DNA of 64,000 nucleotides from positions 249,316 through 313,315 of the forward strand of contig OZ246394.1 of the NCBI GenBank assembly GCA_965230895.1, written 5' to 3'. This DNA comes from an uncultured Gammaproteobacteria bacterium (GTDB lineage Bacteria > Patescibacteriota > Microgenomatia > Levybacterales > UBA12049). Shown in pieces: positions 20,770-36,147 of the stretch (within the stretch, counting starts at the first letter, position 1; each line of letters opens with the position of its first letter). Position numbers and translations under genes: made by a program. The notes below the pieces were generated by a model. That model was not told the DNA's origin. It saw only the letters and a program-made list of their open reading frames with translations, and made no database searches.

Positions 20770-20853
20770 AAATCGTTTTTAGGCTAAGAAGCCCTGATGC
20801 TGGAATTGGTAGACAGGCTAGCTTCAGGTGCTAGTGTCAGTAATGGTGTGTGA
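20770..20853 (+). tRNA. tRNA-Leu (anticodon CAG)
   Basis: Acceptor GCCCTGA/TCAGGGC, anticodon stem CTAGC/GCTAG with loop TTCAGGT, long variable arm, T-loop TTCGAGT. Confidence 0.85.
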
Positions 20854-20902
20854 GTTCGAGTCTCTCTCAGGGCACATACTATCAACTATAATATAGTGTG
20901 GA

Positions 20903-20946
20903 CCTGCCTGCCGGCAGGCAGGGGTTCGACTCCTCTCTTGGGCACC
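20903..20946 (+). other. tRNA 3'-end remnant (T-arm + 3' acceptor: GGGGTTCGACTCCTCTCTTGGGCACC) preceded by a perfect 20-bp palindrome cctgcctgccggcaggcagg
   Basis: Resembles the 3' end of the adjacent tRNA-Leu(CAG) (TTCGAGTCTCTCTCAGGGCAC) with several changes; no 5' half. Typical of duplicated att-site scars left by tRNA-targeting integrases. Confidence 0.5.
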
Positions 20947-20972
20947 GAGCCAAACTCAGTTAAGAAAACAAT

Positions 20973-21055
20973 GCGGATGTGGTGAAATGGTATACACGCT
21001 ACCTTGAGGTGGTAGTGCTCGCAAGGGCGTGGAGGTTCAACTCCTCTCATCCGCA
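20973..21055 (+). tRNA. tRNA-Leu (anticodon GAG)
   Basis: Acceptor GCGGATG/CATCCGC, anticodon stem CTACC/GGTAG with loop TTGAGGT, long variable arm, T-loop TTCAACT. The last 19 nt overlap the stop-proximal codons of the convergent recombinase gene. Confidence 0.85.
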
Positions 21056-22569
21056 CTGAAGGAGAACTCCTCCGATTCGAATGCTCGAATAGACTGATAT
21101 ATCGGACTAATTGAAGTGTTGTAGTAGTCTGGATAGCCCCATCTGAGTCCCTCAGGGAAAATTGAACACAGTAAGACACGGAGCTGGCTAAGTGTAGACA
21201 TTTGGTATGTTTTTCCTAAATTTACAAATTTCTCTTTCATAAAAGTAATAATAATTTCAAGATTATATTTAGCAAGCAAAGCATCATCCTTTGTAATATG
21301 AAGAGCTGCTATTTGATCTTCAATAAGTTTATTCTGTTCTTTGAATATTTCATCTGAATAAGTTCCATTTAAATTCTTTTGTATAAGCTGTTGACGCATT
21401 TCAGAAAGTCTCTGCATCTCTTTATCTGCTTCATCTCTGCGTTTTTGTAGTTGTGCTACTCGTGCATAATAAGTTCTTCTAAGCAGTGCTATAAAAGCGT
21501 TAAGTGCTTCTTGCGTTGGTGTTATGCCTGATAAATAATGTGCAAGTTCTTTATGTGCTTTATCAGCAGAGATAGAGGTAGGTTTTGGACATTTTTGACA
21601 ACGATAGTAAGCATACTTCATACGTTTCCCTTTACTCCATCCTCCTGTCACAGGATTGCTACATCTATGGCAAATAAGTAGTCTTCGGAGTGGAAATTCC
21701 GCATTATCCTTATTTCTCCTGGTTAATGGAATATTTATATTAGTATTTCTGCCGTCAATCGCTGCCTGAACTCGATAGAAAAGAGCTTCTGATACCATTG
21801 GCAGGTGTTGTCCTTTCACTTCTTCAGGGTACTTTTCTGAGGATAGTATCCCAATATAAAATTTATTGCGAAACATTCGACTTAATGCTTGCTCTCGTAC
21901 AATATGTTTTTTCCCAGCAAAGTTTTGTCTCACTCCCCTATCATTCATTAATTTTGCCATTTCTTTTAATGTCTTTGTTCCTGTTGCCATAAGTTCCCAT
22001 GCAGCTTTTACTTTATCCCATGTTTGTGGATTTTTGACTGCATAACCATTCTCATTTTTGTATCCTAATGGCGGTGTTCCGCTCGTAAGTCCTGCCAAAA
22101 ATCGTGCTCGTAGACCGTTTTTAGTTCGCTCACTTCGTACATCATTATCCATTTGTGCAAAGCTAGCAAGCATAGACTCAATAAAGCGTTCTGTTGGTGT
22201 ATTTCCTGTTGGTTCTGAAGCTGAAAGTATCATTATGCCATAATCTGAAAGCTTTTTCCTAATGGCTAAATAGTCTTGCAACTGTCGGGATATACGATCC
22301 AATCTGTAGACAATTAAAGCATCAATATTCTGTTTGTTCTTTCTGCAATATTCCATAAGTTCCTTAAGCACAGGTCTTCCTGAAATATTTTTTGCAGATT
22401 TCCCTTCTTCTTTAAATACCTTAATAACTGTTAACCCTTTTCTTTCTGCTTCTTGCCTGCAAATTTTTTCTTGGGTTCCGAGTGAGAAATTATCTACTTG
22501 TTCTTCGCTTGAGACTCGAATATATGCAATTGATTGTTTAGTGCCTTTTGTAAAAGTTATTGATTCCAT
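21037..22569 (-). CDS. large serine recombinase (resolvase/invertase catalytic domain + recombinase domain + zinc-ribbon/coiled-coil)
   Basis: 510 aa. IAYIRVSSEEQVDNFSLGTQE (catalytic Ser motif), ...RLDRISR..., and downstream Cys pairs (CHRCSNP...CQKC). Confidence 0.85.
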   Translation of the reverse strand: MESITFTKGTKQSIAYIRVSSEEQVDNFSLGTQEKICRQEAERKGLTVIKVFKEEGKSAKNISGRPVLKELMEYCRKNKQNIDALIVYRLDRISRQLQDYLAIRKKLSDYGIMILSASEPTGNTPTERFIESMLASFAQMDNDVRSERTKNGLRARFLAGLTSGTPPLGYKNENGYAVKNPQTWDKVKAAWELMATGTKTLKEMAKLMNDRGVRQNFAGKKHIVREQALSRMFRNKFYIGILSSEKYPEEVKGQHLPMVSEALFYRVQAAIDGRNTNINIPLTRRNKDNAEFPLRRLLICHRCSNPVTGGWSKGKRMKYAYYRCQKCPKPTSISADKAHKELAHYLSGITPTQEALNAFIALLRRTYYARVAQLQKRRDEADKEMQRLSEMRQQLIQKNLNGTYSDEIFKEQNKLIEDQIAALHITKDDALLAKYNLEIIITFMKEKFVNLGKTYQMSTLSQLRVLLCSIFPEGLRWGYPDYYNTSISPIYQSIRAFESEEFSFSADERS

Positions 22570-22571
22570 GA

Positions 22572-22919
22572 TTATTTTTCGTTGAGTACTTCTTTTAGAG
22601 TCATCCCACTAAAGAGATCTTTTTCAAATTCATCGAGCCATGTATCTATAAGGAATTGAAACTCTGTAGTTACACATTGGATCTTTTCATCAGAAAAATC
22701 TTTCCCTTTTTCTCCAAACATCTTGCGCATTTTTATAACAGTATTTTCTTCTACACCATGGAAAAAGATGTCTTTCAAGCTATTTTCAAGAGGATTAAAT
22801 ATGTCGGCAGGTGGAGAGGCTATATCGGGACTTTCTTTTTGAGGAGTTTTTATATCAGAAGAAATAGAGGTTTCAAATATGGATAATTGTGGTAAGTTTA
22901 TATCTTGCATGATGTTCAA
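22572..22919 (-). CDS. hypothetical protein (115 aa), immediately upstream of and co-oriented with the recombinase
   Basis: Stop is 2 nt before the recombinase ATG. Acidic; could be a recombination directionality factor (speculative). Confidence 0.45.
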   Translation of the reverse strand: MNIMQDINLPQLSIFETSISSDIKTPQKESPDIASPPADIFNPLENSLKDIFFHGVEENTVIKMRKMFGEKGKDFSDEKIQCVTTEFQFLIDTWLDEFEKDLFSGMTLKEVLNEK

Positions 22920-22922
22920 TAA

Positions 22923-23035
22923 CTATCTCCTTAGGGATAGTATATATCTCTATCGGGATAGTGTTCAGTCAATATAAATGATTATTTTTATTGTCTTTCC
23001 GATAATGGCAATCAATAAAGATTATTGCCATAGTT
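22923..23035. promoter_or_regulatory. operator-like repeats in the divergent recombinase-operon / XRE promoter region
   Basis: actatc-N8-gatagt and ctatc-gg-gatag palindromes (gggatagt repeated 30 nt apart), plus aatggcaat-N14-attgccata inverted repeat. Confidence 0.4.
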
Positions 23036-23042
23036 CTTTCAT

Positions 23043-23291
23043 ATGTCATTTTTAGGAAATGATTCTGCAAAAACTCGTGAGCTTAAGAAAGAAGATTATG
23101 CTTTAGCTGAGAAAATCCAAAGATTTCGTAGAGAAAGAGGGATGACTCAAGAAGAACTTTCTGAAAAGATAGGCAGGAATTCTTCATATATTGCTTATGT
23201 TGAAACCCATAGAAGAGGCTTAAGTTTGCCTGTTGTTTATAAACTTGCACGAGTTTTAAAAGTGAAATTGAAAGAGTTGTTTGATTTCTAG
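23043..23291 (+). CDS. XRE-family HTH transcriptional regulator
   Basis: 82 aa. RRERGMTQEELSEKIGRNSSYIAYVETHRRGLSLPVVYKLARVL. Confidence 0.8.
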   Translation: MSFLGNDSAKTRELKKEDYALAEKIQRFRRERGMTQEELSEKIGRNSSYIAYVETHRRGLSLPVVYKLARVLKVKLKELFDF

Positions 23292-23299
23292 TTTAAGTT

Positions 23300-23375
23300 G
23301 CTCCTCAGTATAGACTTGAACTACAACCTTCTCGTAAACTGCGAGCTGCTCTACCAATTAAGCTACCGAGGAATA
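23300..23375 (-). tRNA. tRNA-like gene, most likely tRNA-Asn (GTT), with an atypical anticodon loop (CAGTTTA)
   Basis: Acceptor TCCTCGG/CTGAGGA (one G-U), D-arm GCTT-AATTGGTA-GAGC, T-arm TGTAG-TTCAAGT-CTATA. The anticodon stem has a 27-43 mismatch and A33/T37 in the loop, so identity is uncertain. Confidence 0.5.
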
Positions 23376-23383
23376 TTATTATC

Positions 23384-24574
23384 TTAAAATTGTAACAGAA
23401 TTTTTAGTTTCTTGACGGCTTCTTTGATTTCTTGCTTTGATGCACTTGAGAAGGAAATTCGGATATTCGAAGAATATTTATCACCGAAATAATTCCCTGG
23501 AACAATTGCTATGCCTTGGTCAAGTAATGCATCACAAAAATCTTGTGCATCACGAATCAATTTCCCTGCAATAGTTTTGCCGAAGAAAGAACTTATATTA
23601 GGAAATAAGAAGACTGCCCCTTCTCCATCAATATCTTTGAATCCTTGTATATCTCTTAATCCATCTTTAAGCAATGATTTCCTCTCACTAAATTTATTAA
23701 TTGTAGCTAAAAGAGATTTTTGATCTCCAGCCCAAGCTTCTATTGCCGCGACTTGTGCAAAAGAAACCGGGTTAGCTGTTACTTGTGCTTGTAACATCGA
23801 CATTGTCTTTATTACTTTATTATTCCCACATATAAATCCTATTCTAAACCCGCTCATTGAGTAATCTTTTGAAGTCGAACCAATCGTGAACGTTCTGTTA
23901 AATGCATCCTGCGAGATTGTTGCTATTGGAATATGTTTATTATTCCCATATGTAAAATTCGCCATTGTTTCATCAGAAATAATAAATAAATTCTTTTCAT
24001 TTGCCACATCAGCTATCATTTCAAGCGTTTTCTTTTTGTAAACACGGCCTGTGGGATTAGAAGGACTATTAATAATAATTATTTTAGTTTTTGGAGATAT
24101 AACTTCCAAAAGTTCTTTTTTTGTTGGTTCAAAATTATTCTCTTCTTGTGTATTAACAATAACTGGGATTCCACCCGCAATTTTTACTTGTTCTATATAA
24201 GTTTCCCAATAAGGAGCAAGTATTATTGTTTCATCACCCGTATTTAGAAGTGAGAAAATGCTGTTAAATAGTGCGTGTTTTGAGCCACAAGAAATAAGGC
24301 AATCAATTTGCGGATTATACTGCAAGTTATATTTTTTACGTAGCATGTGACATACTGTTTCTTTAAGTTCAATAATTCCTGAGTAAGTTGTATATTTTGT
24401 TTGGTTATCTTGAATTGCCTTAATTGCAATATCTTTAATATTTTGTGGAGTTTTTACATTAGTTTCAATTGTATCTAATCGAATAATTTTCTTGCCATTG
24501 CTTTCAAGAATTTTTATTTTCTCTTTAATAACATTTGTTGGTGAAATTCGTATGTCCTTAAGATTGTTCCGCAT
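23384..24574 (-). CDS. class I/II PLP-dependent aminotransferase (aspartate-aminotransferase fold)
   Basis: 396 aa. ...IINSPSNPTGRVY... and ...TFTIGSTSKDYSMSGFRIGF... (PLP-lysine region). AT-rich codon usage. Confidence 0.75.
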   Translation of the reverse strand: MRNNLKDIRISPTNVIKEKIKILESNGKKIIRLDTIETNVKTPQNIKDIAIKAIQDNQTKYTTYSGIIELKETVCHMLRKKYNLQYNPQIDCLISCGSKHALFNSIFSLLNTGDETIILAPYWETYIEQVKIAGGIPVIVNTQEENNFEPTKKELLEVISPKTKIIIINSPSNPTGRVYKKKTLEMIADVANEKNLFIISDETMANFTYGNNKHIPIATISQDAFNRTFTIGSTSKDYSMSGFRIGFICGNNKVIKTMSMLQAQVTANPVSFAQVAAIEAWAGDQKSLLATINKFSERKSLLKDGLRDIQGFKDIDGEGAVFLFPNISSFFGKTIAGKLIRDAQDFCDALLDQGIAIVPGNYFGDKYSSNIRISFSSASKQEIKEAVKKLKILLQF

Positions 24575-24671
24575 TGGAGTTTTATACTAAAAGTAGAGTT
24601 AATAGTTATTTTCCATCTTGAAAAAAATAGCTATGTTTGAGATTATACACTAATCGCTCTAGCTTTATATA

Positions 24672-26006
24672 ATGAAAAAAAAGTATATCATACATTTAGA
24701 GAAATTATTACAGAACAAGCATAAAGAGAATGAAGCGATTGCACTCCCCTGTTGGATAAAAGGAAAACGACTCTATAAAGACGTAATGTTTCTAGACATA
24801 ACTGATTCCACTGGCACTATTCAAGTTATTGCAAAAAAAGATCTAATGGGCGAAGAAGATTTTAAGCGTTTAAAAAATACTCCTCAGGAATCTTGTATAG
24901 AAGTAGAATGTGTTGCATCAACAGATCCAGTTAGTAAAGAAAAGAGTATTTTTATTAAGAAGTTCAATTTAGTGGGTGAATGGAAATTGAAATTACAGCC
25001 AGGACCTCGTTCTGATTTTGACGTTTTCTCCTCGGAGAACTCTGATTTTCTTCTTAAAAATAGACATCTTTATATCAGAAATCCAAAAGTAATGGCTATG
25101 TTAAAGTTTCGACATCAAATGATGGGTGCTGTACATGAGTGGTATCGAAAAAATGGATTTATAGAGATTACTGCTCCAGTTTTGACACAACTTCCTTTAT
25201 ATGAAGATGGGAGCGCGCTTTCTCTTAAAATTGATAAGGATGATATTTATCTAACGCAATGTGTAGGATTTTACTTAGAGAGTGCAGTTGCAGCATTTGA
25301 GAAAGTATATAATATTGGTCCGAGTTTTCGCGGTGAAGAAAGTAGAAGCAAACGGCATTTGATGGAATATTGGCATATCAAAGCAGAAGTCGCATTTATT
25401 AATTTAGAGGAAGGTCAAAAGATGGTTGAAGATTTATTAGCATTTATTGTTAATGATCTTATGGAGAATGGTCAAGATATTCTCAAAACGTTAAATGCTC
25501 AACCTGCGCTAGAGATATTAAAAGCACCTTTCCCTAAAATTACTTATCGTGAAGCAGTTAAATTACTTAATGATAATGGACACTCTTTTACATTTGGCAA
25601 AAGTCTGAGTTCTTTAGAAGAAGGCATTCTAGCAGAAAAGTTTACGACTCCTTTTTGGGTTGTGGGTATTCCGAAATCTTTAGAGCCATTTCCTTATGTC
25701 ATAGATCCAAAAGATGCTGAGGTCACAAGAGTCTCAGATCTTATTGCTCCAAGAGGGTATGGAGAGCTTTTAGGAGTAGCCGAAAAGATATATGATATTG
25801 ATGAACTTAACTCAAGAATGAAAGATAAAGGGAAACTTGATAATAAAAATTACAAATGGGTTCAAGAATTACGAGAATCTGGATATTTTCCACATGTTGG
25901 TTTTGGAATGGGAGTTGAAAGATTTATCCGTTATATTCTTGGGCAAGAACATGTTCGAGATGCAATACCTTTCCCTCGAGTATTTCGAAGAAAAATATAT
26001 CCATAA
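24672..26006 (+). CDS. class IIb aminoacyl-tRNA-synthetase homolog, AsnRS/AspRS-like (with N-terminal OB-fold)
   Basis: 444 aa. N-terminal OB-like segment (LPCWIKGKRLYKDVMFLDITDSTGTIQVIAKKD), motif 2-like FRGEESRSKRHLMEYWHIKAEVAF, motif 3-like GFGMGVERFIRYILG. Confidence 0.65.
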   Translation: MKKKYIIHLEKLLQNKHKENEAIALPCWIKGKRLYKDVMFLDITDSTGTIQVIAKKDLMGEEDFKRLKNTPQESCIEVECVASTDPVSKEKSIFIKKFNLVGEWKLKLQPGPRSDFDVFSSENSDFLLKNRHLYIRNPKVMAMLKFRHQMMGAVHEWYRKNGFIEITAPVLTQLPLYEDGSALSLKIDKDDIYLTQCVGFYLESAVAAFEKVYNIGPSFRGEESRSKRHLMEYWHIKAEVAFINLEEGQKMVEDLLAFIVNDLMENGQDILKTLNAQPALEILKAPFPKITYREAVKLLNDNGHSFTFGKSLSSLEEGILAEKFTTPFWVVGIPKSLEPFPYVIDPKDAEVTRVSDLIAPRGYGELLGVAEKIYDIDELNSRMKDKGKLDNKNYKWVQELRESGYFPHVGFGMGVERFIRYILGQEHVRDAIPFPRVFRRKIYP

Positions 26007-26011
26007 AGATT

Positions 26012-26521
26012 ATGACAAATACAAAATATTCTATTGAACCTCTCGACATTAAACATGCAGACCCACTTACTAATTGGTTTAATACATTTGTTGATCAAGA
26101 TCTAGGTGTTGTAGAGAATTTTCATGTAACCGTGGATTCCGAAAGGAGTTATATTGAAGATTACCTCTCTACAATTAAGACAGGCGAACCTATGTCATAT
26201 ATTATTTCCCATGATGAAATTATTGTTGGAAAAGTCGATATCCGTCCGTTTTCAAGATATATTGATAAACATGTTGTGGAGTTAGGTTTTGGAATGCTAA
26301 AGGACCATCCTGAAGCAGGTAAGCAACTCCTTCAATTTATTGAAGAACCTTTGAAGAAAAGAAATCTCGAAGTTGTACTCTATTTTATTTTAGCTCGTAA
26401 TAATTATTTTAGAGAACTTTTCAAACTATCTGGGTTTAAAGAAGTTGGTAAAATTGATAACTTTTATAAAGTAGATGAAGGTTATGACGCAAGAATTATT
26501 TTAGAAAAGATTTTGAAATAA
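26012..26521 (+). CDS. GNAT-like acetyltransferase-fold protein (tentative)
   Basis: 169 aa, 6 nt after the aaRS-like stop. Beta-strand/helix pattern and VVELGFGM... segment consistent with the acyl-CoA N-acyltransferase fold; weak. Confidence 0.35.
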   Translation: MTNTKYSIEPLDIKHADPLTNWFNTFVDQDLGVVENFHVTVDSERSYIEDYLSTIKTGEPMSYIISHDEIIVGKVDIRPFSRYIDKHVVELGFGMLKDHPEAGKQLLQFIEEPLKKRNLEVVLYFILARNNYFRELFKLSGFKEVGKIDNFYKVDEGYDARIILEKILK

Positions 26522-26559
26522 TTACTTCACTTATTGCTATATTTTCTCATTACTCAAGT

Positions 26560-27093
26560 TTACATTATATTATTAAACATAAATCCAATCATTGTTGGAG
26601 CATCAAAAATTTTACTCTTCTTGATCATATCCTGTATTTTCTTAGGCTCCACATATATAATGTCAATATCTGACTCAGAATCATCGAAATTGACCGAGTC
26701 TATCGATTGAGGTTTAGCGGCTATGAAGTGGCATACTTGTGAAGTTGCTCCTTTATTAAGCATACATTTGCCAAGATAAGTTATCTCATCTGGTTGTGCA
26801 ATAAGTCCTGTCTCTTCTTTTAATTCACGAATACCTGCTGTAGTAACATCTTCCCCTTCATGAAGTAAACCCATTGGAAATTCAGTCATACGTGCGTTTG
26901 CAAGATATCTATATTGCTCAATAAGGACATATTTATTTTTATAAACAGGAACAATTACTACAATATCATTCTTCTTATAGTGCTCATAAACACCTTCTTT
27001 ACCATTTGGAAAAACTATCTCATCGCGGAAAACTTGCATGTGTTTTCCTTTATAACACTGTTCTGAAGATATACGTTTATATTCACCTCGCAT
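26560..27093 (-). CDS. Nudix hydrolase
   Basis: GLLHEGEDVTTAGIRELKEETGL is a clear Nudix box (Gx5Ex7REUxEExGU). Confidence 0.8.
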   Translation of the reverse strand: MRGEYKRISSEQCYKGKHMQVFRDEIVFPNGKEGVYEHYKKNDIVVIVPVYKNKYVLIEQYRYLANARMTEFPMGLLHEGEDVTTAGIRELKEETGLIAQPDEITYLGKCMLNKGATSQVCHFIAAKPQSIDSVNFDDSESDIDIIYVEPKKIQDMIKKSKIFDAPTMIGFMFNNIM

Positions 27094-27102
27094 AGTTCAC
27101 GA

Positions 27103-28176
27103 TTAATTAATTTTTACATATGGACTGGCAGCATACCGTTTGCGTCCTTCTGTATTTAGCTCTCTAACCATTGTACCAGATATGTTATATCTTGGAGTAG
27201 GAAGTACAATTATTTCACTATCGAATTCTCTGCCGACTGTTTCTATAGCATCACCTACATCTAATGGATCAGCATCTCCTCGTACAGACAAAAATATAGC
27301 ATTTCCGCTATTAATTAAGTAATTAGAAACAGGATCATCTTCTCTCGCTTTGGCTATACGAGATAACAATGTATCACTCCCCATTACATGACGACCTCTT
27401 CCTTGAGAATCCATGCTTGCAACTAATTGTCTATACTCTATAACTTCTTCTACTTCTGTTAAATCACTTGGAATACCAAGCACAGTCACTCTTTCATGAT
27501 CTGCAAATCCTCTGACAAGATTATCTACTCTATCTGAAAAATTATCGCCAATAGATTTTTCAGTAGATCTTGTGATAGTACTAACCATAACTCTTCGGTC
27601 TTTTATGCCTTTATTCAATAAAACTCCTTCTACTTGTTCTGCGACTTCCGCATGTCCTACATGAGGAAATGGATTAAATGAACCTGGATATTGAGCAATT
27701 GTAACATTATCAGAACTAAGAAGCCCTTCTGCATGCCCTACTGTAAGAATCTGGCCTAATCTTGTTAAATCTCTTTCACCTGTACAAAATCCCATATTTT
27801 TCCTGTTAGCAGCTAAAAAATCTGCTACAACTTCAGGATCTCCAACTTCTGCAACATCCTCAAATTGATTTAAGAAGCTATGTGCTCGAGCTTCTGCCAT
27901 AGTGCTAAATTCGCTTCTCGGAGTTTCAGAGTCAAACTCAGATCCTCCTTTATAAGAACCTAACACTCTTCCAACTCGACCAAGTCTTTCTCCTGAACAG
28001 ATTTCTAATATATCTAAAGGTTTTTGTCCAGTACGAGCAACTCGTATTTCTTCGCCCAATAAAGTTCCCATAGGGACAGAACTTGAATCTGTTGTTAAAG
28101 GGGTGTGTAAGCGGTTTATTGATTGAAGGAAACCAATCTTATTTCTATATACTGATGCATCTGCTTCGGATCTCAT
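27103..28176 (-). CDS. nucleotidyltransferase of the HxGH cytidylyltransferase-like superfamily (PPAT/NadD-like C-terminal domain) with about 165-aa N-terminal domain of unknown function
   Basis: YPGSFNPFPHVGH (T/HxGH motif) and C-terminal ISGTMVRE (ISxTxxR motif). Confidence 0.6.
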   Translation of the reverse strand: MRSEADASVYRNKIGFLQSINRLHTPLTTDSSSVPMGTLLGEEIRVARTGQKPLDILEICSGERLGRVGRVLGSYKGGSEFDSETPRSEFSTMAEARAHSFLNQFEDVAEVGDPEVVADFLAANRKNMGFCTGERDLTRLGQILTVGHAEGLLSSDNVTIAQYPGSFNPFPHVGHAEVAEQVEGVLLNKGIKDRRVMVSTITRSTEKSIGDNFSDRVDNLVRGFADHERVTVLGIPSDLTEVEEVIEYRQLVASMDSQGRGRHVMGSDTLLSRIAKAREDDPVSNYLINSGNAIFLSVRGDADPLDVGDAIETVGREFDSEIIVLPTPRYNISGTMVRELNTEGRKRYAASPYVKIN

Positions 28177-28203
28177 ACTATATTATTGAGCAGGTTGTTA
28201 ATT

Positions 28204-29115
28204 TTAATCTATATAGCTCGGTAAAGCAATTTTGCCAAAAATTCTTTCAGACATTTGATTTAATTGTTTATAACTTTTAATTACTCCTGCTTCATTTAAT
28301 GAATGTAATACCTTATATGTATCATCATGGTTTGGAAGAATATATCGAAATCCTTTGTTATCAATTTCTTTGTGTATCCCTTTATATTTTTTGTCTACTG
28401 AAACGGGATAGAGGTCTGTTTTTTGTTTTTTAGCTATATCTTGAAACATAACCATGCTCGGATTAAACTCAATTTCTAATCTATTGCAAATCTTTTGAAT
28501 TACATTCTCTACACCTCCATCTGGATGTTCAAAAACTTTCATAACTACCATGCTTGTATCAATTCCTTGATCTTGTGCACTGATTATTGTCCCCAAAAAA
28601 CAATTATATGCTGCGATTAGATTCTTTAAAGCTAATTGTCCATATTTTTTATAAGCTTCATCCAGTGTTTTGGGATCTCTCGTTATCATCCAATATTTAA
28701 GCCAACCATTATAAATAGCAAGAGGATCTCTTGTTATTCCTAGTATCTTTGTTTTTTTTATAAATTCAGCCTCTGATACTCCTGCGTGTTCCGCCGCTAG
28801 CTGCAAAACACGGGTTGGATAGTGAACAATCATAGAGGGGGTTATTGGACCATATGTTTCTTTTAAAAATACTGATTTACCATTGCCAGGCATTTGGATA
28901 GTAATAGGTTCTTTGCCTTGATCCGTGGGGTATGCAATTGCATTTCTTAATACATCTTCACCAAATGCATCAAAACTAGATGAACATGATAGAACTTTAC
29001 TCATGGCGGTAGTTCCTCCTCTTCCTACGCCAAGCGTAATTATCATATTTGGATAACCATTGGGAAAGTGAATGTATTTCGCATAATCTTCAGGTTTCAG
29101 AAATTCTTTTTTCAT
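28204..29115 (-). CDS. PAPS-dependent sulfotransferase
   Basis: 5'-PSB-like P-loop ITLGVGRGGTTAM and 3'-PB-like LGITRDPLAIYNGW (RDP) motifs in correct order and spacing. Confidence 0.7.
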   Translation of the reverse strand: MKKEFLKPEDYAKYIHFPNGYPNMIITLGVGRGGTTAMSKVLSCSSSFDAFGEDVLRNAIAYPTDQGKEPITIQMPGNGKSVFLKETYGPITPSMIVHYPTRVLQLAAEHAGVSEAEFIKKTKILGITRDPLAIYNGWLKYWMITRDPKTLDEAYKKYGQLALKNLIAAYNCFLGTIISAQDQGIDTSMVVMKVFEHPDGGVENVIQKICNRLEIEFNPSMVMFQDIAKKQKTDLYPVSVDKKYKGIHKEIDNKGFRYILPNHDDTYKVLHSLNEAGVIKSYKQLNQMSERIFGKIALPSYID

Positions 29116-29172
29116 ATTCTAGGAGGCTGCAAAGTCTCGACAATTATATCATAATAATCTACAATTGCTTTT

Positions 29173-30903
29173 ATGAGAAATTCAAAAAAATCTGTGTCTC
29201 CAGCCCATGGTGGACTATTAAAGAACTTAATGGTTAAGGATAAAAAGCGTAAAGAAGAAATTTTGCAAAAGCTTCCAAATATTCCTCGTCTTAATCTAAG
29301 CATTAGACAATTATGTGATCTAGAACTTCTTATGAATGGCGGATTTTCTCCACTGGAAGGGTTTATGAGAAAAGAAGATTATGAGAGTGTTGTCTATAAT
29401 ATGCGGCTAAATGATGGAACATTGTGGCCAATCCCAGTAGTACTTGATGTAAATGATATTAAAAGTTACAAGCTAGGATCAGAATTACTATTATGCGATC
29501 AATATGGAAAACCACTAGCACTATTTACAATTAGTTCAATCTATGAACCTTCAAAAAGAATAGAAGCAGAAAATGTTTACGGTACAACAGATACAACTCA
29601 CTTTGGAGTAAATCAGTTGGTGGAACATACTGGAAATTTTTATTTAGGAGGGAAAGTAGAAGGTATTAATACTATTGATCATTACGATTTTACAGAAGTT
29701 AGGTTTACTCCTGAACAAATATATAAGTTGCTCAAGGAGGATAAAAATGACAAATTAATAGGATTTCAAACAAGAAATCCATTACACAAAGCCCATTATA
29801 CTATGATTCAGAAAGCTGCTGAAAAATACAAAGCAAAAGTATTAATCCATCCATCCGTTGGTATGACAAAAACTGACGACATTGACTATATTACTCGGAC
29901 TAAATCATATAAATTATTGCATAAGAATTATGCAAAGAATTTCTCATTCTTAAGTCTTTTACCTTTAGCTATGCGTATGGCGGGGCCAAGAGAAGCCTTA
30001 TGGCATGCCATTATACGAAAGAATTATGGTTGTACTCATTTTATTATAGGTAGAGATCATGCAGGTCCAGGTAAGGATAAAAATGGTACTCCTTTTTACG
30101 GAGTCTACGAAGCTCAAGAATTAGTCAAAAAATATTCTAAGGAATTAGATATTATTCCTATTTTTGTTAATGAAATGGTTTATGTTGAAGAGGCAAATGA
30201 ATATATGCAGGAAGACCAAGTTAATGAAACACACACTATTAAGAAAATTTCTGGAACTAGGTTTAGAGAAATGATTCAAAATGATGAACAAATTCCTGAA
30301 TGGTTCTCTTTCCCGGAAATAATAGCTGAGATTAAAAGAGGTGTTACTAGACAGAGAAAAGATGGTTTAACAATATTCTTTACAGGTCTTCCAAGTGCAG
30401 GTAAATCAACGATTGCTCTAAATCTCTATTATCATTTACTCGAGATTCAAGATAAAAACATTACTCTATTGGATGGTGATATTGTAAGAAACAATTTGTC
30501 GAAAGGATTAGGCTTCAGTAAAGAGGATCGAGATGCAAACATAGCACGTATTGGTTTTGTCGCAAATGAGATTACGAAGCATAGAGGAATCGCTATTTGC
30601 TCCGCAATTGCACCTTTCGAGCAAGCACGACAGTTGAATCGAAAGCTAATAAATTCAAATGGAAACTATGTAGAAGTCTATATATCAACTCCAGCAGAAA
30701 TATGTCAACAAAGAGATGTTAAAGGTTTATATAAAATGGCTTCTATGGGGAAAATTAAAGGCTTAACTGGAGTTGATGATTCTTATGAGGTACCTTCAAA
30801 TCCAGAAATGACAATAAATACTGAAAAAAGGACTCCTGAAGAATGTGTTGAAGAGATTATTAACTATCTTCTCAAAAAAAGACTTATACATGTAACTAAA
30901 TGA
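29173..30903 (+). CDS. bifunctional sulfate adenylyltransferase / adenylylsulfate (APS) kinase (PAPS synthase)
   Basis: N-terminal ATP sulfurylase motifs FQTRNPLHKAHYTM and HFIIGRDHAGPG. C-terminal APS kinase P-loop FFTGLPSAGKSTIA and ...RDANIARIGFVANE... Confidence 0.85.
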   Translation: MRNSKKSVSPAHGGLLKNLMVKDKKRKEEILQKLPNIPRLNLSIRQLCDLELLMNGGFSPLEGFMRKEDYESVVYNMRLNDGTLWPIPVVLDVNDIKSYKLGSELLLCDQYGKPLALFTISSIYEPSKRIEAENVYGTTDTTHFGVNQLVEHTGNFYLGGKVEGINTIDHYDFTEVRFTPEQIYKLLKEDKNDKLIGFQTRNPLHKAHYTMIQKAAEKYKAKVLIHPSVGMTKTDDIDYITRTKSYKLLHKNYAKNFSFLSLLPLAMRMAGPREALWHAIIRKNYGCTHFIIGRDHAGPGKDKNGTPFYGVYEAQELVKKYSKELDIIPIFVNEMVYVEEANEYMQEDQVNETHTIKKISGTRFREMIQNDEQIPEWFSFPEIIAEIKRGVTRQRKDGLTIFFTGLPSAGKSTIALNLYYHLLEIQDKNITLLDGDIVRNNLSKGLGFSKEDRDANIARIGFVANEITKHRGIAICSAIAPFEQARQLNRKLINSNGNYVEVYISTPAEICQQRDVKGLYKMASMGKIKGLTGVDDSYEVPSNPEMTINTEKRTPEECVEEIINYLLKKRLIHVTK

Positions 30904-31913
30904 AAATGTATCCAGAAGCCACGAGTATTTTTGAGTATATAAAAAAATCAGAAAATATCGTGATAAATATGCATCGTAATCCAGATCTAGACTCAGTTGG
31001 TAGTGCAAGTTCAATGTGTGAACTCTTACGGACGATGGGTAAGAAGGTAACTCTCATTTGTCCTCATAAACTAAGTAGTAAATTCTTCTTCATAAAACAT
31101 GCTCGATCTGTACTCCAAATAGACTATGCGGATTTTGATTTCACTCCTTATGACTTATTCATCTTAATTGATACAGCTAATTTCTATGTAGCATCTGATA
31201 AGCGAGATCTAACTTGGGCAAGTAAACTTACAGTACCTACTATGGTTTTAGATCATCACAAGACCAATTCAATTAAATCTACTTTTAAATTGATTGATGA
31301 GCAAGCAAATGCAGCTGGAGAAATTCTCTATTATTTGTTTGAACAATGGAAGGTTTCTTTTAATTGTGAGATTGCAACAGCTTTATATGCTTCAATTATT
31401 GGCGATACTGTTTTCTTACGCTATAAAAATAATCCGGAAAACTTATATAAAGTACTTGCTCATTTAATAGAATTAGGAGCTGATGAAAAATTAGTATTAA
31501 GCCAGTACTATGATTTCTTTTCACTTGAACATATTCAAATGTTTGGAGAGTTCTTAAAACATTTTGAGATAAATTCAACAGAAACATTCGCTTGGACAGC
31601 CCTTAATTATGAAACATATGTGCATTACAAAAAGCCTCTAGGAATACGTGAAGCTATAGCGGATGACTATGGTAGAGCTATCGGTAAAAGCAAGTTTGGG
31701 TTAGTCCTCCTTGAAGAGGAACCTGGAAAAGTTATGATGAGTTTTCGTTCATCGAAAGTAGACGTTTCTCAAGTGGCAAAGTTATTTAATGGAGGCGGGC
31801 ATGCTCATGCTGCTGGAGCCGTTATCTATGGAGATTTTGACAAAACTGTTAATAAAATTCTGAATGTAATCGAAAAATTTTTAGCTGAGAGAAGTAATAT
31901 TATTGACATCTAA
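30900..31913 (+). CDS. DHH/DHHA1 phosphoesterase, NrnA-like (candidate 3'-phosphoadenosine-5'-phosphate phosphatase / nanoRNase)
   Basis: DHH motif (MVLDHHKTN) and DHHA1 GGGHAHAAGA. Start overlaps the PAPS synthase stop (ATGA). Confidence 0.75.
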   Translation: MKMYPEATSIFEYIKKSENIVINMHRNPDLDSVGSASSMCELLRTMGKKVTLICPHKLSSKFFFIKHARSVLQIDYADFDFTPYDLFILIDTANFYVASDKRDLTWASKLTVPTMVLDHHKTNSIKSTFKLIDEQANAAGEILYYLFEQWKVSFNCEIATALYASIIGDTVFLRYKNNPENLYKVLAHLIELGADEKLVLSQYYDFFSLEHIQMFGEFLKHFEINSTETFAWTALNYETYVHYKKPLGIREAIADDYGRAIGKSKFGLVLLEEEPGKVMMSFRSSKVDVSQVAKLFNGGGHAHAAGAVIYGDFDKTVNKILNVIEKFLAERSNIIDI

Positions 31914-31971
31914 TATGCAATCTCTTAAATTAGTAATGATCCCCTACTTATAGCAATTTCTTGTGAACAAA

Positions 31972-33603
31972 ATGCTTAATCAAAACGCAGTAGCAGTAAT
32001 GCGGGTTTCCTCACAGAAGTAGGGCTTTGATGGTGATTCTATTGAGCACCAAAGAGTTCAGATTGAACTTTATGCTTCAACTCGCAACATCACGATTAAA
32101 AAATATTTCATATTAATAGAGTCAGCTGCGAAAGAACAACAACCAACACAAGAGGCTATCGAGTATTGCACAAATAAAAAGAATAACATTCAGCTTCTTA
32201 TTATTAAATCTATTGATAGATTTACTCGTGGAGGAGCCTACTTCTATGAGGATATGAAAGCGAAGCTAACAAAACATCGTGTGCAGTTAGTTGATCTCTA
32301 TGGTGTGATTAACAATCAAGAGGTTAATACGCTTGAGCATCTGGGAGTGAAGTATTCATGGAGCGTCTATAATCCAAGTAAAAAATCAGAGATCCTTGAA
32401 GCAGAACGTGGTAAGGATGAGCTACGAGATATCCTATCTCGCATGATTGGTTCTGAAGTTCGTTATACACGTTTGGGATATCGTGTTCGACAAGCACCTT
32501 TTGGATATCAGAATCAACGAATAGAAACTATACATGGAAAGCGGTTTATCCTCGTACCTCATCCAATAGAATCAGTATGGGTAAAACGAATGTTTGAATT
32601 AAAAGTTCAATCGCTTTATTCAGATCAAGAAATCGTTAAGCAAATCAATCTCATGGGTTTTAGAACAAGAAAAGTATATTTCCGTGACCCTAGAAATAAG
32701 GCACGAGCAATTGGTATAAAAGGTGGCAATCAACTAAATTTGACAAGTTTTGATAAATTCCTGCGTAATCCTATCTATACAGGGATTACTGTAGAAGTAT
32801 GGACATTGCAGAAACCTATCAAATGTCAATTTGAAGGTTTAGTTTCGATAGAAACATTTAATAAAGCAAATGCAGGGAAAGTAATGATTTTTGAAGAAAA
32901 TGGAGAATTACAAATATTAAAGGGTAAGGTTCTTAAGAAAAGAATAGTTGAAACAGCTATAAGTGTGAGATATCCTTATCGAAAGTTGGTATTGTGTAGT
33001 AATGGAAGACATCCCTTCTATGGGAGTGCTTCTCGTGGTAGAGGAAACGGTTATTTCCCTGCATATCATTGTGATACTAAAAGAAGAGCTCATTATATTC
33101 GAATTCCTGTTAAAAGATTTCATGCAGCTATTATTGACTACTTACAGAGCGTGCGCATAAAGGATGAGGCAATAGAGGAATTCCATAAAACTCTTTCCGA
33201 AAGACAGAATCTTAAGATGCATGATTCTACGTTTCAAACTACTGCAATTAAGCAAAGAGTATTGCAGATTGAAAAAGAGATTTTCCTTCTTATAGACAAA
33301 ATAAAGATGTTACATTCAGTAGTAGCACTACAAGCGCTTGAAATAGATATAGAAAAGCTGAGAGTAGAAAAAGAAGAATTACTAAAGAAGGAAAAAATGG
33401 TTGCTTTACAAAAGAAAAAAGATAATATAGCGAATAATGTTGTAGTGAGTACTCTAGACAGAATACCTGAAGATGTTATTAATGATCATAACGAAATGCT
33501 TAAAAAACAGCTTTTTGAGATGCTATTTGAAGAACTGCCGAGTTATGATGATCTTTTAAATAAAACAGCCCTTTTAAGGCCAGGATTTGAGCTAGCCTTA
33601 TAG
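31972..33603 (+). pseudogene. large serine recombinase gene interrupted by an in-frame TAG at codon 17 (position of the conserved catalytic-motif Gln)
   Basis: MLNQNAVAVMRVSSQK-TAG-GFDGDSIEHQ... aligns with IRVSSEEQVDNFSLGTQ of the intact paralog. The same frame continues 94 codons to the ATG of the 449-aa ORF (32254-33603), which carries recombinase-domain and coiled-coil regions but lacks the catalytic Ser. Confidence 0.7.
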
Positions 33604-33618
33604 GGATCGAAGCTTGAA

Positions 33619-33879
33619 TCATTTATCTTTTTTAAGATTCTTTGCTACTTTCTGCATTGCATCAACAACTTTTTCAGCATATCCTTCCGTAGCATTTCTT
33701 GGATCACGTTCTGTAAGTACTTTAAGCACTGTTTCCAGTACTTTCTGTCTATTATTTCCACTTGCTACCTCTTCAAAAACAGAAGGAGAAATATGCTTTA
33801 AAAAATCTTTATAACTACTTGCCTCCATATACTTCTTTAGCTCTTCCAAACTAATATCTGTGCTTTTTATTTTCATCAT
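33619..33879 (-). CDS. hypothetical protein (86 aa)
   Basis: Helical, Lys-rich; divergent from the XRE gene. Confidence 0.4.
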   Translation of the reverse strand: MMKIKSTDISLEELKKYMEASSYKDFLKHISPSVFEEVASGNNRQKVLETVLKVLTERDPRNATEGYAEKVVDAMQKVAKNLKKDK

Positions 33880-33953
33880 GGTGATTCTATCACAAAATTC
33901 AGTATTTTAAGCACACATAACCAAAAAGATGTATAATATCTGAAGAAGATATT

Positions 33954-34154
33954 ATGGATTTTTATAACAATATTGGCAAACTTTTTAGAGAAACTCGCGA
34001 AAAAGCTGGATTAACACAATCTGAAGTAGCTAAAAAAGCAGGGATTCATGTTAATTACTATGCGAGAATAGAACGAGGAGAACCCGAATTTCGGGCTGTA
34101 GTGCTTAACAAGGTGGCTAAAGCACTTAACCTGACCATTACACTACCTCTTTAG
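33954..34154 (+). CDS. XRE-family HTH transcriptional regulator
   Basis: 66 aa. REKAGLTQSEVAKKAGIHVNYYARIERGE. Confidence 0.75.
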   Translation: MDFYNNIGKLFRETREKAGLTQSEVAKKAGIHVNYYARIERGEPEFRAVVLNKVAKALNLTITLPL

Positions 34155-34320
34155 TTTACTGCACGTTTCTTCTTATAATGTCTTTTCGTCTTTGAGTAGC
34201 TTGAACCTTGCGGCAACATTTTGTCATCAGCTACACTTTCTTGATCTTTATAAACAAGGATTAGTTTCCAAATCCAAGGCAAAAAGTGTTCAAAAGAAAA
34301 TGCATCAGGGGCACAGACTT

Positions 34321-36147
34321 CTATTTCTTTAAAGGTAACGAGAAACAGAATGTAGATCCTTTACCTTTTTTACTTTCGACCCAGATTTCTCCCCGATGCC
34401 GTTTAATAATCTCAGCAGAAATATATAATCCCAAACCTAAATTCTTTTTACTTTTTTTATCTCTTTCATTCATCCGGAAGTATTTTTCGAAAATTTCTTT
34501 TTGCTTTCCGCTAGGGATTCCCTCGCCAAAATCCTGGATACAAACTCCAATCCTATTTTTTTCTTTATGCATCGTAATGATAATTTCATCGTTCTTTGGC
34601 GAATATTTAACTGCATTTGTCAATAAATTTAAAATTACCTGACTCAAACGTTCTTGATCGCCAGTAATAATACATTTCTCATGAGGAGTATATTTAATTG
34701 TATGTGTATCTGTAATATATTGAAAATCCTTCACTGTTTGTGTAACTAATCCTTGTAAATCAAATTTACTTTCTCGCAAAGCTAATTTCCCAACTTCAAT
34801 TTTACTTATATCAAGAAAATCTCCTACTAACGTCACAAGCTTCTCAACCTGCGTATTTATATTTTGTAAAAAATAAGTGCTTTTCTCGTCAACATTATTT
34901 GCGAGATGTTTTTGAAGAATCTGAGCATAGGCTTTAATGCTCGTGACTGGAGTTTTTATTTCATGAGCAGCCATACTCAGAAATTCGTCTTTTTGCTTTT
35001 GCTGCTCTTTAATGTCAGTAATATCTTTGAATACTACAAAAACAAGATGCTTCTCATTATCATATACTCGATTCATGACAACTCTGTACCATTTTTGAGA
35101 TTCATCATCAAAATGTTCAAACCGCTTGCGTTTTCCTGTCTGGGCAACTTTGGCATGAAGATCGCACCACCATTGTCTATCATCACGATCGGGGTAAACT
35201 TCTCCTGCGGTTTTTCCTACAAGATTTGTGATGCCAACCTGTTTCTCCCACGCGTCGTTGACGGCTAAGAATCGATAATCGTATGAAAAGCCTTCTTTAT
35301 TAAATAGTGCTTCAATAAGGCAAGCTCCATCTTCAAGAGAGTTAAATAAAGTACGATACTTCTCTTCTGATCTTTGTACGATGCTTTCGGCTTGTACACG
35401 TTCGAGGGCTTGTGCACATTGCCTGCCGAGAGCTTGGATGAATAATCTATCTTCTTCACTAAACTTCTTGCTTGAGGAGAAACTTAAACAAAGTACACCT
35501 ATTATTTTCTTATCTATTACTAGTGGTGCTGCTGCAAAAGATGTATTTTCACTTGCCTGCGCAATTTTAATTGTAAGTGGGTATCGTATCTTTCCTTCCT
35601 CTATCGATTCGATGAAGATAACATTTCCGGTCCGTACTGCATCCGCAAGATGAATTGGCGCTGTAATTGGCATATTATTCCAGTGATTGAGTTCGCGTTT
35701 TTTAAATCCAATAGCATGGAGTATTTTAAGCATCTGCCCAGAATCATCAAGGAGGTATATGAGCCCACTTTGGGCTTGCATTGTTTCCATCCCTTGTTTA
35801 ATAAGTATGTCGGCGATATCCAGAGACGTATGTGCCCCAGAAAGCTCATTAATCAGAAATTGGAATCGAGCTAAGCGTTCAATTGCTCGTTCGAAATCAT
35901 GTTTAAAGAAATCTATACTTGTTCCTTGTGAAAGACTTGGTTGGCTTGTGTCTGTACCCATAAGCTGGAGGACATCATCTCTTTTATATCTTCGATCTCC
36001 CCTCTTACCAAATCTAATCGCTTTTAAAATACCATTTTTATCCCAAAGTCTCAGTGTGTTTGGATGAACCTTTAGAATATTACTTGTTTGTTTAAAAGTG
36101 AGAAGTTCTTCTTGAGGTATATTATAATTTGCCATTTTACTTACCAA
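34321..36147 (-). CDS. sensor histidine kinase with N-terminal MerR/excisionase-type DNA-binding HTH, GAF and PAS domains
   Basis: N-term LLTFKQTSNILKVHPNTLRLWDKNGILKAIRFGKRGDRRY (HTH_17-like). Central GAF/PAS-like segments. HisKA H-box HEIKTPVTSIKAYAQIL. HATPase N/G boxes (LLTNAVKYSP..., DFGEGIP..., GLGLYISAEII). Confidence 0.75.
   Translation of the reverse strand: MVSKMANYNIPQEELLTFKQTSNILKVHPNTLRLWDKNGILKAIRFGKRGDRRYKRDDVLQLMGTDTSQPSLSQGTSIDFFKHDFERAIERLARFQFLINELSGAHTSLDIADILIKQGMETMQAQSGLIYLLDDSGQMLKILHAIGFKKRELNHWNNMPITAPIHLADAVRTGNVIFIESIEEGKIRYPLTIKIAQASENTSFAAAPLVIDKKIIGVLCLSFSSSKKFSEEDRLFIQALGRQCAQALERVQAESIVQRSEEKYRTLFNSLEDGACLIEALFNKEGFSYDYRFLAVNDAWEKQVGITNLVGKTAGEVYPDRDDRQWWCDLHAKVAQTGKRKRFEHFDDESQKWYRVVMNRVYDNEKHLVFVVFKDITDIKEQQKQKDEFLSMAAHEIKTPVTSIKAYAQILQKHLANNVDEKSTYFLQNINTQVEKLVTLVGDFLDISKIEVGKLALRESKFDLQGLVTQTVKDFQYITDTHTIKYTPHEKCIITGDQERLSQVILNLLTNAVKYSPKNDEIIITMHKEKNRIGVCIQDFGEGIPSGKQKEIFEKYFRMNERDKKSKKNLGLGLYISAEIIKRHRGEIWVESKKGKGSTFCFSLPLKK

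Follow-up and report, generated by a model that had tools for sequence, protein, structure and literature searches.

How does the gene for a large serine recombinase (LSR) come to have its final 19 nt inside the 3′ end of a tRNA gene? This question is raised by a 64,000-nucleotide stretch of contig OZ246394.1 (the whole stretch is referred to below as the window), in which such a gene overlaps tRNA-Leu(GAG). An original prediction, made from the sequence alone, had described a minimal integrative module ending at a facing tRNA-Asn gene, with a cargo cluster and a second recombinase lying beyond the element. We consider it very probable that positions 21057–34314 are instead one integrated mobile element of 13,258 bp, inserted by its own LSR at the 3′ terminus of tRNA-Leu(GAG); tRNA-Asn, the cargo, and the second recombinase would then all lie inside an element that reaches 34314. 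Features and coordinates are collected in Table 1.

An integrase gene apparently split by insertion

The protein has the makeup of a large serine recombinase: a resolvase domain with the serine nucleophile (PF00239, E = 2.3e-33; motif YIRVSSEEQ), a Recombinase domain (PF07508, E = 2.9e-10), and a zinc ribbon with coiled coil. Residues R18, S20, R89, D91, R92, and R95 are invariant in family alignment A1, with R18 and S20 being catalytic. Its PHROG match is PHROG 95, integrase, and its matches to the NCBIfam CcrA and CcrB models are weak, far under the family cut-offs. An AF2 model of the homologue P0077 (mean pLDDT 83) displays a beta ribbon at residues 297–323 and long helices at residues 352–426. 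The 510-aa length, the 19-nt overlap, the adjacent co-oriented small open reading frame (ORF), the divergent XRE regulator, and the inverted repeats of the spacer are as originally described, and the reading of the recombinase as an integrase at an integration junction on a tRNA 3′ end is likewise supported.

The last five residues of the 510-aa product (506–510, ADERS) are an antisense reading of the tRNA. A different C terminus, of 53 codons and a stop, is found on the LSR strand at the opposite end of the element. The two ends have GCAC in common (21053–21056 and 34311–34314), and when they are joined at GCAC, the detached peptide falls in frame with LSR codon 505, yielding an ORF of 558 aa that reads ...FSFS followed by APDAFSFEHFLPWIWKLILVYKDQESVADDKMLPQGSSYSKTKRHYKKKRAVN and the stop. 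Because joining the ends produces this in-frame ORF, attP appears to lie within the integrase gene itself, about 53 codons before its stop, such that insertion would split the gene.

The same extension is contiguous with the integrase in the database proteins P0122–P0127, where it is 54–78% identical to the window fragment. The extension is probably under selection as protein because this conservation far exceeds the need of a 25-bp DNA site. In P0077 (locus L123), a complete LSR of 546 aa, the extension is also contiguous; this locus has no tRNA nearby and shows a divergent XRE arrangement as in the window. By appearance, L044, L046, L088, and L093 also carry attP-type junctions. At least 14 other elements have the peptide in its detached form at their far end, on the LSR strand and just past an XRE gene, with the conserved pattern ...L-x-F-E-H-x-L-x-W-I/L-x-x-I/L-x-x-A-Y.... 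In the AlphaFold model of P0077, the att-core codons fall in a disordered linker (residues 495–512), and the part corresponding to the detached fragment is the terminal helix (residues 513–531). A disordered linker at the att core, if the model is correct, helps explain how a DNA site can lie within a coding region. As a separate observation on annotation, the conserved-looking C-terminal tails "GAxxERT / SRT" of P0001–P0120 are tRNA antisense (CCA, acceptor strand, and T-loop), an artefact of the integrated state.

The base composition agrees with these ends. The GC content of the island is 0.341 compared with 0.385–0.406 in the flanks, and the island coincides with the lowest-GC stretch of its length in the 64 kb; low GC runs on to 34.3 kb, and host-level GC resumes from 34315. 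Just inside the far end sits a conserved module of an 86-aa ORF and a 66-aa XRE gene (XRE66). Homologues of XRE66 are present in 16 other LSR elements, on the strand opposite to the LSR and 0.5–9.7 kb from it (most 4–10 kb), and homologues of the 86-aa ORF adjoin those of XRE66 in L032 and L034.

The small acidic protein encoded upstream of the LSR is a recurring partner: in 84 loci, a homologue is encoded on the LSR strand, 5–57 nt upstream of the LSR gene. It has no family match in Pfam, NCBIfam, or PHROG, and we infer that it is a candidate directionality factor. Homologues of this protein in the 84 loci have a strongly conserved C-terminal motif, TEFQFLIDxWLDEFEKxxFxGxTLKE. The partner motif FQFLIDxWLDEFE bears a loose resemblance to the detached LSR helix FEHFLPWI, but the possibility that the two are homologous was considered and rejected, as the hhalign comparison is not significant (probability 0.7%, E = 0.078).

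Anatomy of the attachment sites

Positions in att sites are counted here from the discriminator base as 0, and column conservation refers to 46 in-register rows (45 loci and the window). In these rows, the tRNA T-loop box G53-T54-T55-C56-R57-A58 occupies −20 to −15, the only exceptions being three A at C56 and one A at G53, and position +1 is always C. In 18 P arms, the box GTTCRA is found at −25 to −20, around a T-T-C core at −24 to −22 (T-T-C in 18 of 18, G and A in 17 of 18, and R in 15 of 18). The residues encoded over the P-arm box differ between elements (F/Y/L/I/V, then E, then H/P/L/S), yet the DNA motif is kept, which points to selection of the box at the DNA level. The last 3–7 nt of these 18 P arms copy the acceptor end of the specific target tRNA, and the P′ arm carries an inverted box, TCRAA, at +22 to +26, coding F-E of SIRxFE.

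The displacement between the two sets of boxes has a precedent. In the structure of a Listeria serine integrase bound to attP, the outer ZD motif is 5 bp further from the center than in attB (PMC3783163). An offset of the same size and direction separates the box in the 46 tRNA rows from the box in the 18 P arms. Only a small core, around a 2-bp crossover, is common to the short att sites. Blocks common to both junctions are 4–14 nt long in six other elements (L019, L032, L057, L065, L068, and L070) and GCAC in the window; because these blocks overlap at −2 to +1, the crossover is placed at A73/C74. The reconstructed attP is AAGTGTTCAAAAGAAAATGCATCAGGGGCAC joined to TGAAGGAGAACTCCTCCGATTCGAATGC, and the reconstructed attB is GGAGGTTCAACTCCTCTCATCCGCAC joined to AGACTTCTATTTCTTTAAAGG, the right half of which is the 3′ end of a histidine-kinase gene. 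In short form, the predicted junctions are AAAATGCATCAGGGGCAC/TGAAGGAGAACTCC for attP and CTCCTCTCATCCGCAC/AGACTTCTATTTC for attB.

A duplicate of the tRNA 3′ end had been anticipated between 33.6 and 36.2 kb. A tRNA-3′-end-like sequence does exist at 34.3 kb, but it appears to be a mimic with its box shifted by 5 bp and not a tRNA duplicate.

A family with many tRNA targets

Databases contain more than 1,600 homologues of the LSR, and identity to it is 56–87% for the best 120. A scan of species-representative genomes gave 80 family loci. Most record titles are those of Patescibacteria (Roizman-, Shapiro-, Levy-, Davies-, Woese-, and Gottesmanbacteria, Berkelbacteria, Saccharibacteria, and WWE3); the many generic titles ("uncultured Gammaproteobacteria") and the few from other phyla are taken to be binning or submission labels and not true hosts. 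A fixed register is seen in 57 of 81 loci, where the Tyr codon of the conserved motif SPxYQxIR begins exactly 44 nt from the discriminator base of a tRNA gene convergent with the LSR; these in-register tRNAs comprise 23 anticodons for 10 amino acids. By eye, or with tRNAs that ARAGORN missed, about 12 more loci follow this register, for a total of about 70, and the remaining loci mostly run off contig ends or are attP-type junctions. The family thus appears, from these alignments, to be spread across Patescibacteria and to use the 3′ ends of many tRNA genes as attB.

Closely related enzymes are found at different targets. LSRs that are 93% identical reside at Arg(TCT) and Leu(TAA), LSRs that are 98% identical at Ser(CGA) and Ser(GGA), and LSRs that are 88% identical at Asp(GTC) and Ser(TGA). 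Where near-identical LSR tails lie beside different tRNAs, the sequences part at the discriminator/C74 (A73/C74). The closest homologue (85% identical) is at tRNA-Leu(GAG) of a different host, with the junction CATCCGCA/CTAAAGGAGAAC, in which CTAAAGGAGAAC stands where the window has CTGAAGGAGAAC, and heads a conjugative-type element.

Most family members are probably small conjugative-type elements with a VirD4/TraG-like ATPase and Replic_Relax. The interior is at least 5 kb in 58 family loci; the VirD4/TraG-like gene is located on the element side in 50 loci and the Replic_Relax gene in 49, with neither ever on the tRNA side. Matches to VirD4-like and Replic_Relax proteins are absent from the window, and the window copy therefore should be unable to transfer on its own; lacking the DNA-transfer genes that define an integrative conjugative element (ICE), it is most simply viewed as a derivative in which metabolic and translation cargo takes their place.

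An insertion hotspot

The surroundings of the site are conserved. Nineteen metagenomic loci encode a trigger factor 59–83% identical to that of the window, and the loci that reach far enough have the order tRNA-Val(GAC), DUF5660, trigger factor, tRNA-Leu(TAG), and two glucosaminidase-like genes, followed by tRNA-Leu(CAG), tRNA-Leu(GAG), a variable region, and tRNA-Val(TAC), with tRNA-Phe(GAA) past the latter in L105, L118, and the window. The tRNA-Leu(GAG) gene is 100% identical between the window and six relatives, and similarity stops just past ...CCGCAC. The variable region measures 120 nt in L105, 686 nt in L118, and 18.5 kb in the window; in five other relatives, none with an LSR at this place, unrelated genes fill a region of 3.6–7 kb. 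In L083, which is the closest relative and whose trigger factor is 80% identical, tRNA-Leu(GAG) adjoins a different LSR (55% identical), and the element to which that LSR belongs also encodes a TrbC/VirB2-like pilin, a VirD4-like ATPase, Replic_Relax, and Fic. Judging from this synteny, the tRNA-Leu(GAG) locus is likely an insertion hotspot, empty or differently filled in relatives. The original prediction had looked to relatives for empty-site variants, and L105 provides a tRNA-Leu(GAG) site without LSR and with a gap of 120 nt.

Other traces are present at this locus. Degenerate copies of the tRNA-Leu(GAG) 3′ end occur about 45 nt downstream of the intact gene in L104, L113, L114, L115, and L117, with a further copy about 1.8 kb downstream in L114 and L117, and the 1.8-kb stretch of L114 holds what by eye is a HigB/HigA-type toxin–antitoxin pair. 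In L104, the 5′ half of a tRNA-Val precedes the intact tRNA-Val(TAC). These 3′-end copies and the tRNA-Val half are probably scars of other integration events at the hotspot.

In public short-read assemblies of the same population, contigs are broken within each tRNA gene (14392, 20973–21057, and 39579), and contig ends at tRNAs are for this reason not evidence of strain variation. Public contigs whose ends coincide at 21028 were considered as evidence of an empty-site variant and rejected, given like breaks inside unrelated tRNAs (14392 and 39579) and shared tRNA k-mers.

Proposed mechanism

The simplest scheme is that the LSR crosses the 3′ end of the host tRNA-Leu(GAG) with attP at or beside the discriminator (A73/C74), with GCAC as the core. 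Insertion would leave a 510-aa integrase reading into tRNA antisense at one end and the final 53 integrase codons at the other. The zinc ribbon would recognize the T-loop box 15–20 bp from the crossover, with the P-arm mimic 5 bp further out.

A more speculative proposal, which we offer tentatively and regard as rather unlikely in full, is that the family has turned the T-loop box into a zinc-ribbon binding motif, making nearly any tRNA end a landing site, and that the split of the gene serves as a sensor of the integration state. The free element would then make the 558-aa enzyme, whose C-terminal helix would favor integration. After integration, the enzyme made would lack this tail and, acting with the small partner protein, would favor excision.

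Several observations weigh against our reading of the element or of its parts. The zinc ribbon of the LSR (PF13408) scores 22.4 bits, slightly under the cut-off of 25.3, and its proposed role in reading the T-loop box GTTCRA is suggested by geometry and by analogy. As the common core is only 4 nt, the exact crossover dinucleotide is a prediction, and in our own reading of the aligned junctions, an inverted box is not consistently present in the B′ half-sites. Tandem arrays, and not free circles, could be the source of the contiguous "attP-form" genes. In L091 (1340–1500) and L127 (280–400), a P arm is joined to a 50–66-nt relic of an LSR tail; in L127, a P arm identical to that of the window at 48 of 49 nt is joined to a P′ arm. 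We read the L091 and L127 junctions as apparent tandem accretions of two family members at one tRNA, the older of which then decayed. The dead second recombinase inside the island means that part of the island may have come separately. Finally, neither a circular junction nor an island-free variant of this strain was found in the collections searched, and present mobility is unproven.

Alternative explanations

The last point bears on the most durable alternative, in which the junction anatomy is as described above but the truncated integrase no longer excises, such that the element is a fixed, dead relic and now ordinary chromosome. When an empty site was sought via the neighboring kinase gene, all contigs with the kinase carried the island. 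The exact reconstructed 558-aa protein is absent from the protein collection searched, the P-arm DNA is absent from the viral contigs searched, the transfer genes typical of the family are missing, and the second recombinase is a probable pseudogene. On the other side, the LSR, the partner gene, and the 53-codon fragment are all free of internal stops, the fragment retains its 54–78% identity to relatives, and both att arms keep the near-invariant box of the family. We regard a dead relic as possible, although somewhat doubtful.

A crossover of the kind made by tyrosine integrases would lie within the tRNA, in the T-loop or anticodon loop, and the element would bring an identical replacement 3′ segment. 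Such a segment would be invisible in a single genome, the tRNA is indeed intact, and older scars of this kind exist at the hotspot in relatives. The enzyme, however, is a serine recombinase, and the 64 kb contain no displaced piece of tRNA-Leu(GAG). A search for direct repeats of the tRNA 3′ part gave none in the window and, L091 apart, none within 10 kb in the family loci; between the island ends of the window, no direct repeat longer than GCAC was found. The common blocks of 4–14 nt are centered on the tRNA terminus, and near-identical LSR tails at different tRNAs part at A73/C74. These features make a crossover inside the tRNA very unlikely.

Even less probable is the minimal 2.3-kb module of LSR, small protein, and XRE regulator between the facing 3′ ends of tRNA-Leu(GAG) and tRNA-Asn, with CTGAAGGAGAAC and CTGAGGAGCAAC as half-sites. 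Both tRNA-Leu genes and the facing tRNA-Asn are real according to ARAGORN and Rfam, the 3′ ends do face each other, and the XRE gene stops 9 nt from tRNA-Asn. However, the related inverted sequences proposed to lie just outside the two tRNAs do not hold up: the CTGAGGAGCAAC 12-mer (23297–23308) is mostly within the acceptor stem of tRNA-Asn and matches CTGAAGGAGAAC at 8 of 12 positions ungapped, which we judge to be no better than chance. Neither a P-arm box nor an LSR C-terminal fragment is found beside tRNA-Asn; the low GC content continues to 34.3 kb, the far-end module and the in-frame LSR extension are at 33.6–34.3 kb, and the distal junction, in place of the proposed attL/attR half-sites, is at 34313/34314. 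That the overlap of LSR and tRNA is a coincidence and the LSR a resident invertase or resolvase has almost nothing to recommend it, for although overlaps are plausible in the gene-dense genomes of Patescibacteria, the junction is nucleotide-exact in about 70 loci and 23 tRNA types, presence at the site varies among relatives, and the domain set is that of an integrase.

Cargo and other features of the window

Table 1. Features of the putative element and of the adjoining tRNA-Leu genes (window coordinates).
Feature	Position	Strand	Remarks
tRNA-Leu(CAG)	20791–20875	+	ARAGORN and Rfam; xenologous copy that took the place of the ancestral gene
Perfect 20-bp palindrome, CCTGCCTGCC/GGCAGGCAGG	20903–20922		Between tRNA-Leu(CAG) and the remnant
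tRNA 3′ remnant, GGTTCGACTCCTCTCTTGGGCAC	20923–20946	+	T-arm and acceptor strand; directly 3′ of the palindrome
tRNA-Leu(GAG), host gene	20973–21055	+	ARAGORN and Rfam; 3′ part is the B arm, at the tRNA-proximal junction
T-loop box GTTCAA of tRNA-Leu(GAG)	21035–21040		−20 to −15 from the discriminator
LSR, integrated truncated form, 510 aa	21037–22569	−	Resolvase, Recombinase, and Zn-ribbon domains
Crossover dinucleotide AC (A73/C74), predicted	21055–21056 and 34313–34314		
P′ arm	21057–21085		Includes CTGAAGGAGAAC; inverted box TCGAA at 21077–21081 (codons F-E of SIRAFE)
Small acidic partner protein, 112–115 aa	22572–22919	−	2 nt upstream of the LSR, co-oriented
Spacer with inverted repeats	22920–23042		Putative divergent promoter/operator
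XRE-family regulator	23043–23291	+	Divergent from the small-protein/LSR pair
tRNA-Asn(GTT), atypical	23301–23372	−	Island cargo, not a boundary
Cargo	23384–31913		Asp aminotransferase, divergent AsnRS-like enzyme, GNAT, NUDIX, two unknown proteins, ATP sulfurylase/APS kinase, NrnA-like DHH phosphatase
Second LSR-like gene, full-length but inactivated	31978–33603	+	In-frame TAG
Conserved far-end module	33619–34154		86-aa ORF (−) and 66-aa XRE gene, XRE66 (33954–34154, +)
Detached LSR 3′ end, 53 codons and stop, APDAFSFEHFLPWIWKLILVYKDQ...RAVN	34151–34312	−	Stop at 34151–34153
P arm, distal junction	34286–34314		Box GTTCAA at 34288–34293 (−25 to −20); GGGGCAC ends at 34314
B′ arm, host DNA downstream of tRNA-Leu(GAG), AGACTTCTATTTC onward	34315–34345		3′ end of histidine-kinase gene, stop at 34321–34323

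Homologues of the cargo genes were not found inside other LSR elements; the only matches were two distant DHH proteins, outside elements and on the tRNA side. The tRNA-Asn is as unusual as originally noted, with A33, U37, and a G.A pair in the anticodon stem. It adjoins the divergent AsnRS-like gene (319 bits versus a 414-bit cut-off) and the Asp aminotransferase (23301–26006), and these three genes may represent a mobile "asparagine decoding kit" or an orthogonal pair. At 29173–31913, the bifunctional ATP sulfurylase/APS kinase and the NrnA-like pAp phosphatase make up a sulfate-activation module on a mobile element of a reduced-genome bacterium.

The second LSR-like gene was correctly predicted to be inactivated. 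It has a single in-frame TAG, located at the conserved Gln of RVSSxxQ, which could reflect either a one-step pseudogene or a recoded codon. A pseudogene is favored because the neighboring kinase and XRE66 genes end in TAG.

Between the two tRNA-Leu genes, the tRNA 3′ remnant does stand directly behind a perfect 20-bp palindrome, as first described. Its proposed status as an att relic, here considered as a P arm of the LSR family, was ruled out by its tRNA-like box spacing (−20, not the P-arm value of −25) and by its identity as ancestral tRNA-Leu(CAG). The intact tRNA-Leu(CAG) genes of L104, L105, L113, L114, and L117 have at their 3′ end exactly the sequence of the remnant, GGTTCGACTCCTCTCTTGGGCAC, and the tRNA-Leu(CAG) of L083, also of the ancestral type, has the acceptor end of the remnant with one T-loop difference. 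The tRNA-Leu(CAG) of the window differs over its full length from those of all six of these loci. L122 is the sole relative with the window-type gene, and a decayed ancestral copy lies behind it (L122 563–737). The remnant is thus best explained as a relic of the ancestral tRNA-Leu(CAG) that records an older tRNA replacement, separate from the LSR element. The displaced ancestral gene has decayed from its 5′ side, and a perfect hairpin now occupies the former position of the anticodon arm; L122 has a perfect hairpin at the position of the palindrome, with a sequence unlike that of the window.

Comparison with known systems

The large serine integrases of phages and ICEs (Listeria A118/LI, phiC31, Bxb1, and TP901-1) share with the family the domain order of catalytic domain, recombinase domain, and zinc ribbon with coiled coil, as well as short att sites, a very small core, and the 5-bp offset of the outer motif (PMC3783163). 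The family seems to depart from the characterized examples in two respects, its tRNA-end target and an attP in its own coding sequence. To our knowledge, characterized serine integrases target protein-coding genes or intergenic sites and have an attP that is not part of the int ORF. In the present family, a tRNA 3′ end serves as attB, the box recognized is that of the universal T-loop, and attP is embedded in the int gene. We found no description of serine integrases at tRNA genes, in Patescibacteria or in general, in a literature search of partial coverage, and a prior description is possible. The LSR family is apparently undescribed.

If so, the view of tRNA genes as targets of tyrosine integrases only (PMC4383910) would change. 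A serine-integrase family at tRNA 3′ ends, with about 70 examined loci and more than 1,600 homologues, alters that picture, and island finders that seek a displaced tRNA fragment would miss all such elements. These elements, integrative and often of conjugative type, apparently form a major family among the reduced genomes of the candidate phyla radiation. For annotation, C-terminal tails such as ...SADERS and ...GAxxERT should be read as tRNA antisense, and orphan small ORFs at island ends as detached integrase C termini. Serine integrases work without host factors and serve as tools for genome engineering; enzymes with a T-loop-based landing site could provide natural landing pads in many organisms.

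The P4-like and Islander-type islands of tyrosine integrases are alike in having a tRNA 3′-end site, a functional tRNA, an int gene beside the tRNA, and a hotspot of repeated insertion. They differ in their tyrosine recombinase and in the displaced tRNA fragment that forms a direct repeat, whereas the LSR has serine recombinase domains only, the repeat is 4 nt, and the window has no second copy of the tRNA-Leu(GAG) 3′ part. SCCmec Ccr recombinases have as their insertion site the 3′ end of rlmH, a conserved housekeeping gene. They too are large serine recombinases, but their target is a protein-coding gene, they are often paired, and the recombinase gene is unsplit. In actinomycete ICEs and small Firmicute ICEs and integrative mobilizable elements, the likeness is to the relatives within the family, with sizes of 6–12 kb or more, a single VirD4/FtsK-like ATPase, Replic_Relax, an integrase, and XRE regulators; the window copy differs in having no transfer genes, and the hosts of the family are Patescibacteria.

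For the split gene, the nearest analogue comes from an unrelated enzyme family. In the SSV1-type (fusellovirus) integrases of archaea, attP is inside the int ORF, the target is a tRNA gene, and the gene is split to opposite ends of the element, as in the window. SSV integrases are tyrosine recombinases of archaeal viruses; they cross over in a long stretch of identity within the tRNA, and much of the protein is lost. The window shares the position of attP inside the int ORF with these partitioned integrases but, in line with record titles of bacterial Patescibacteria, encodes a bacterial serine recombinase that would lose only its C-terminal helix of about 53 residues.

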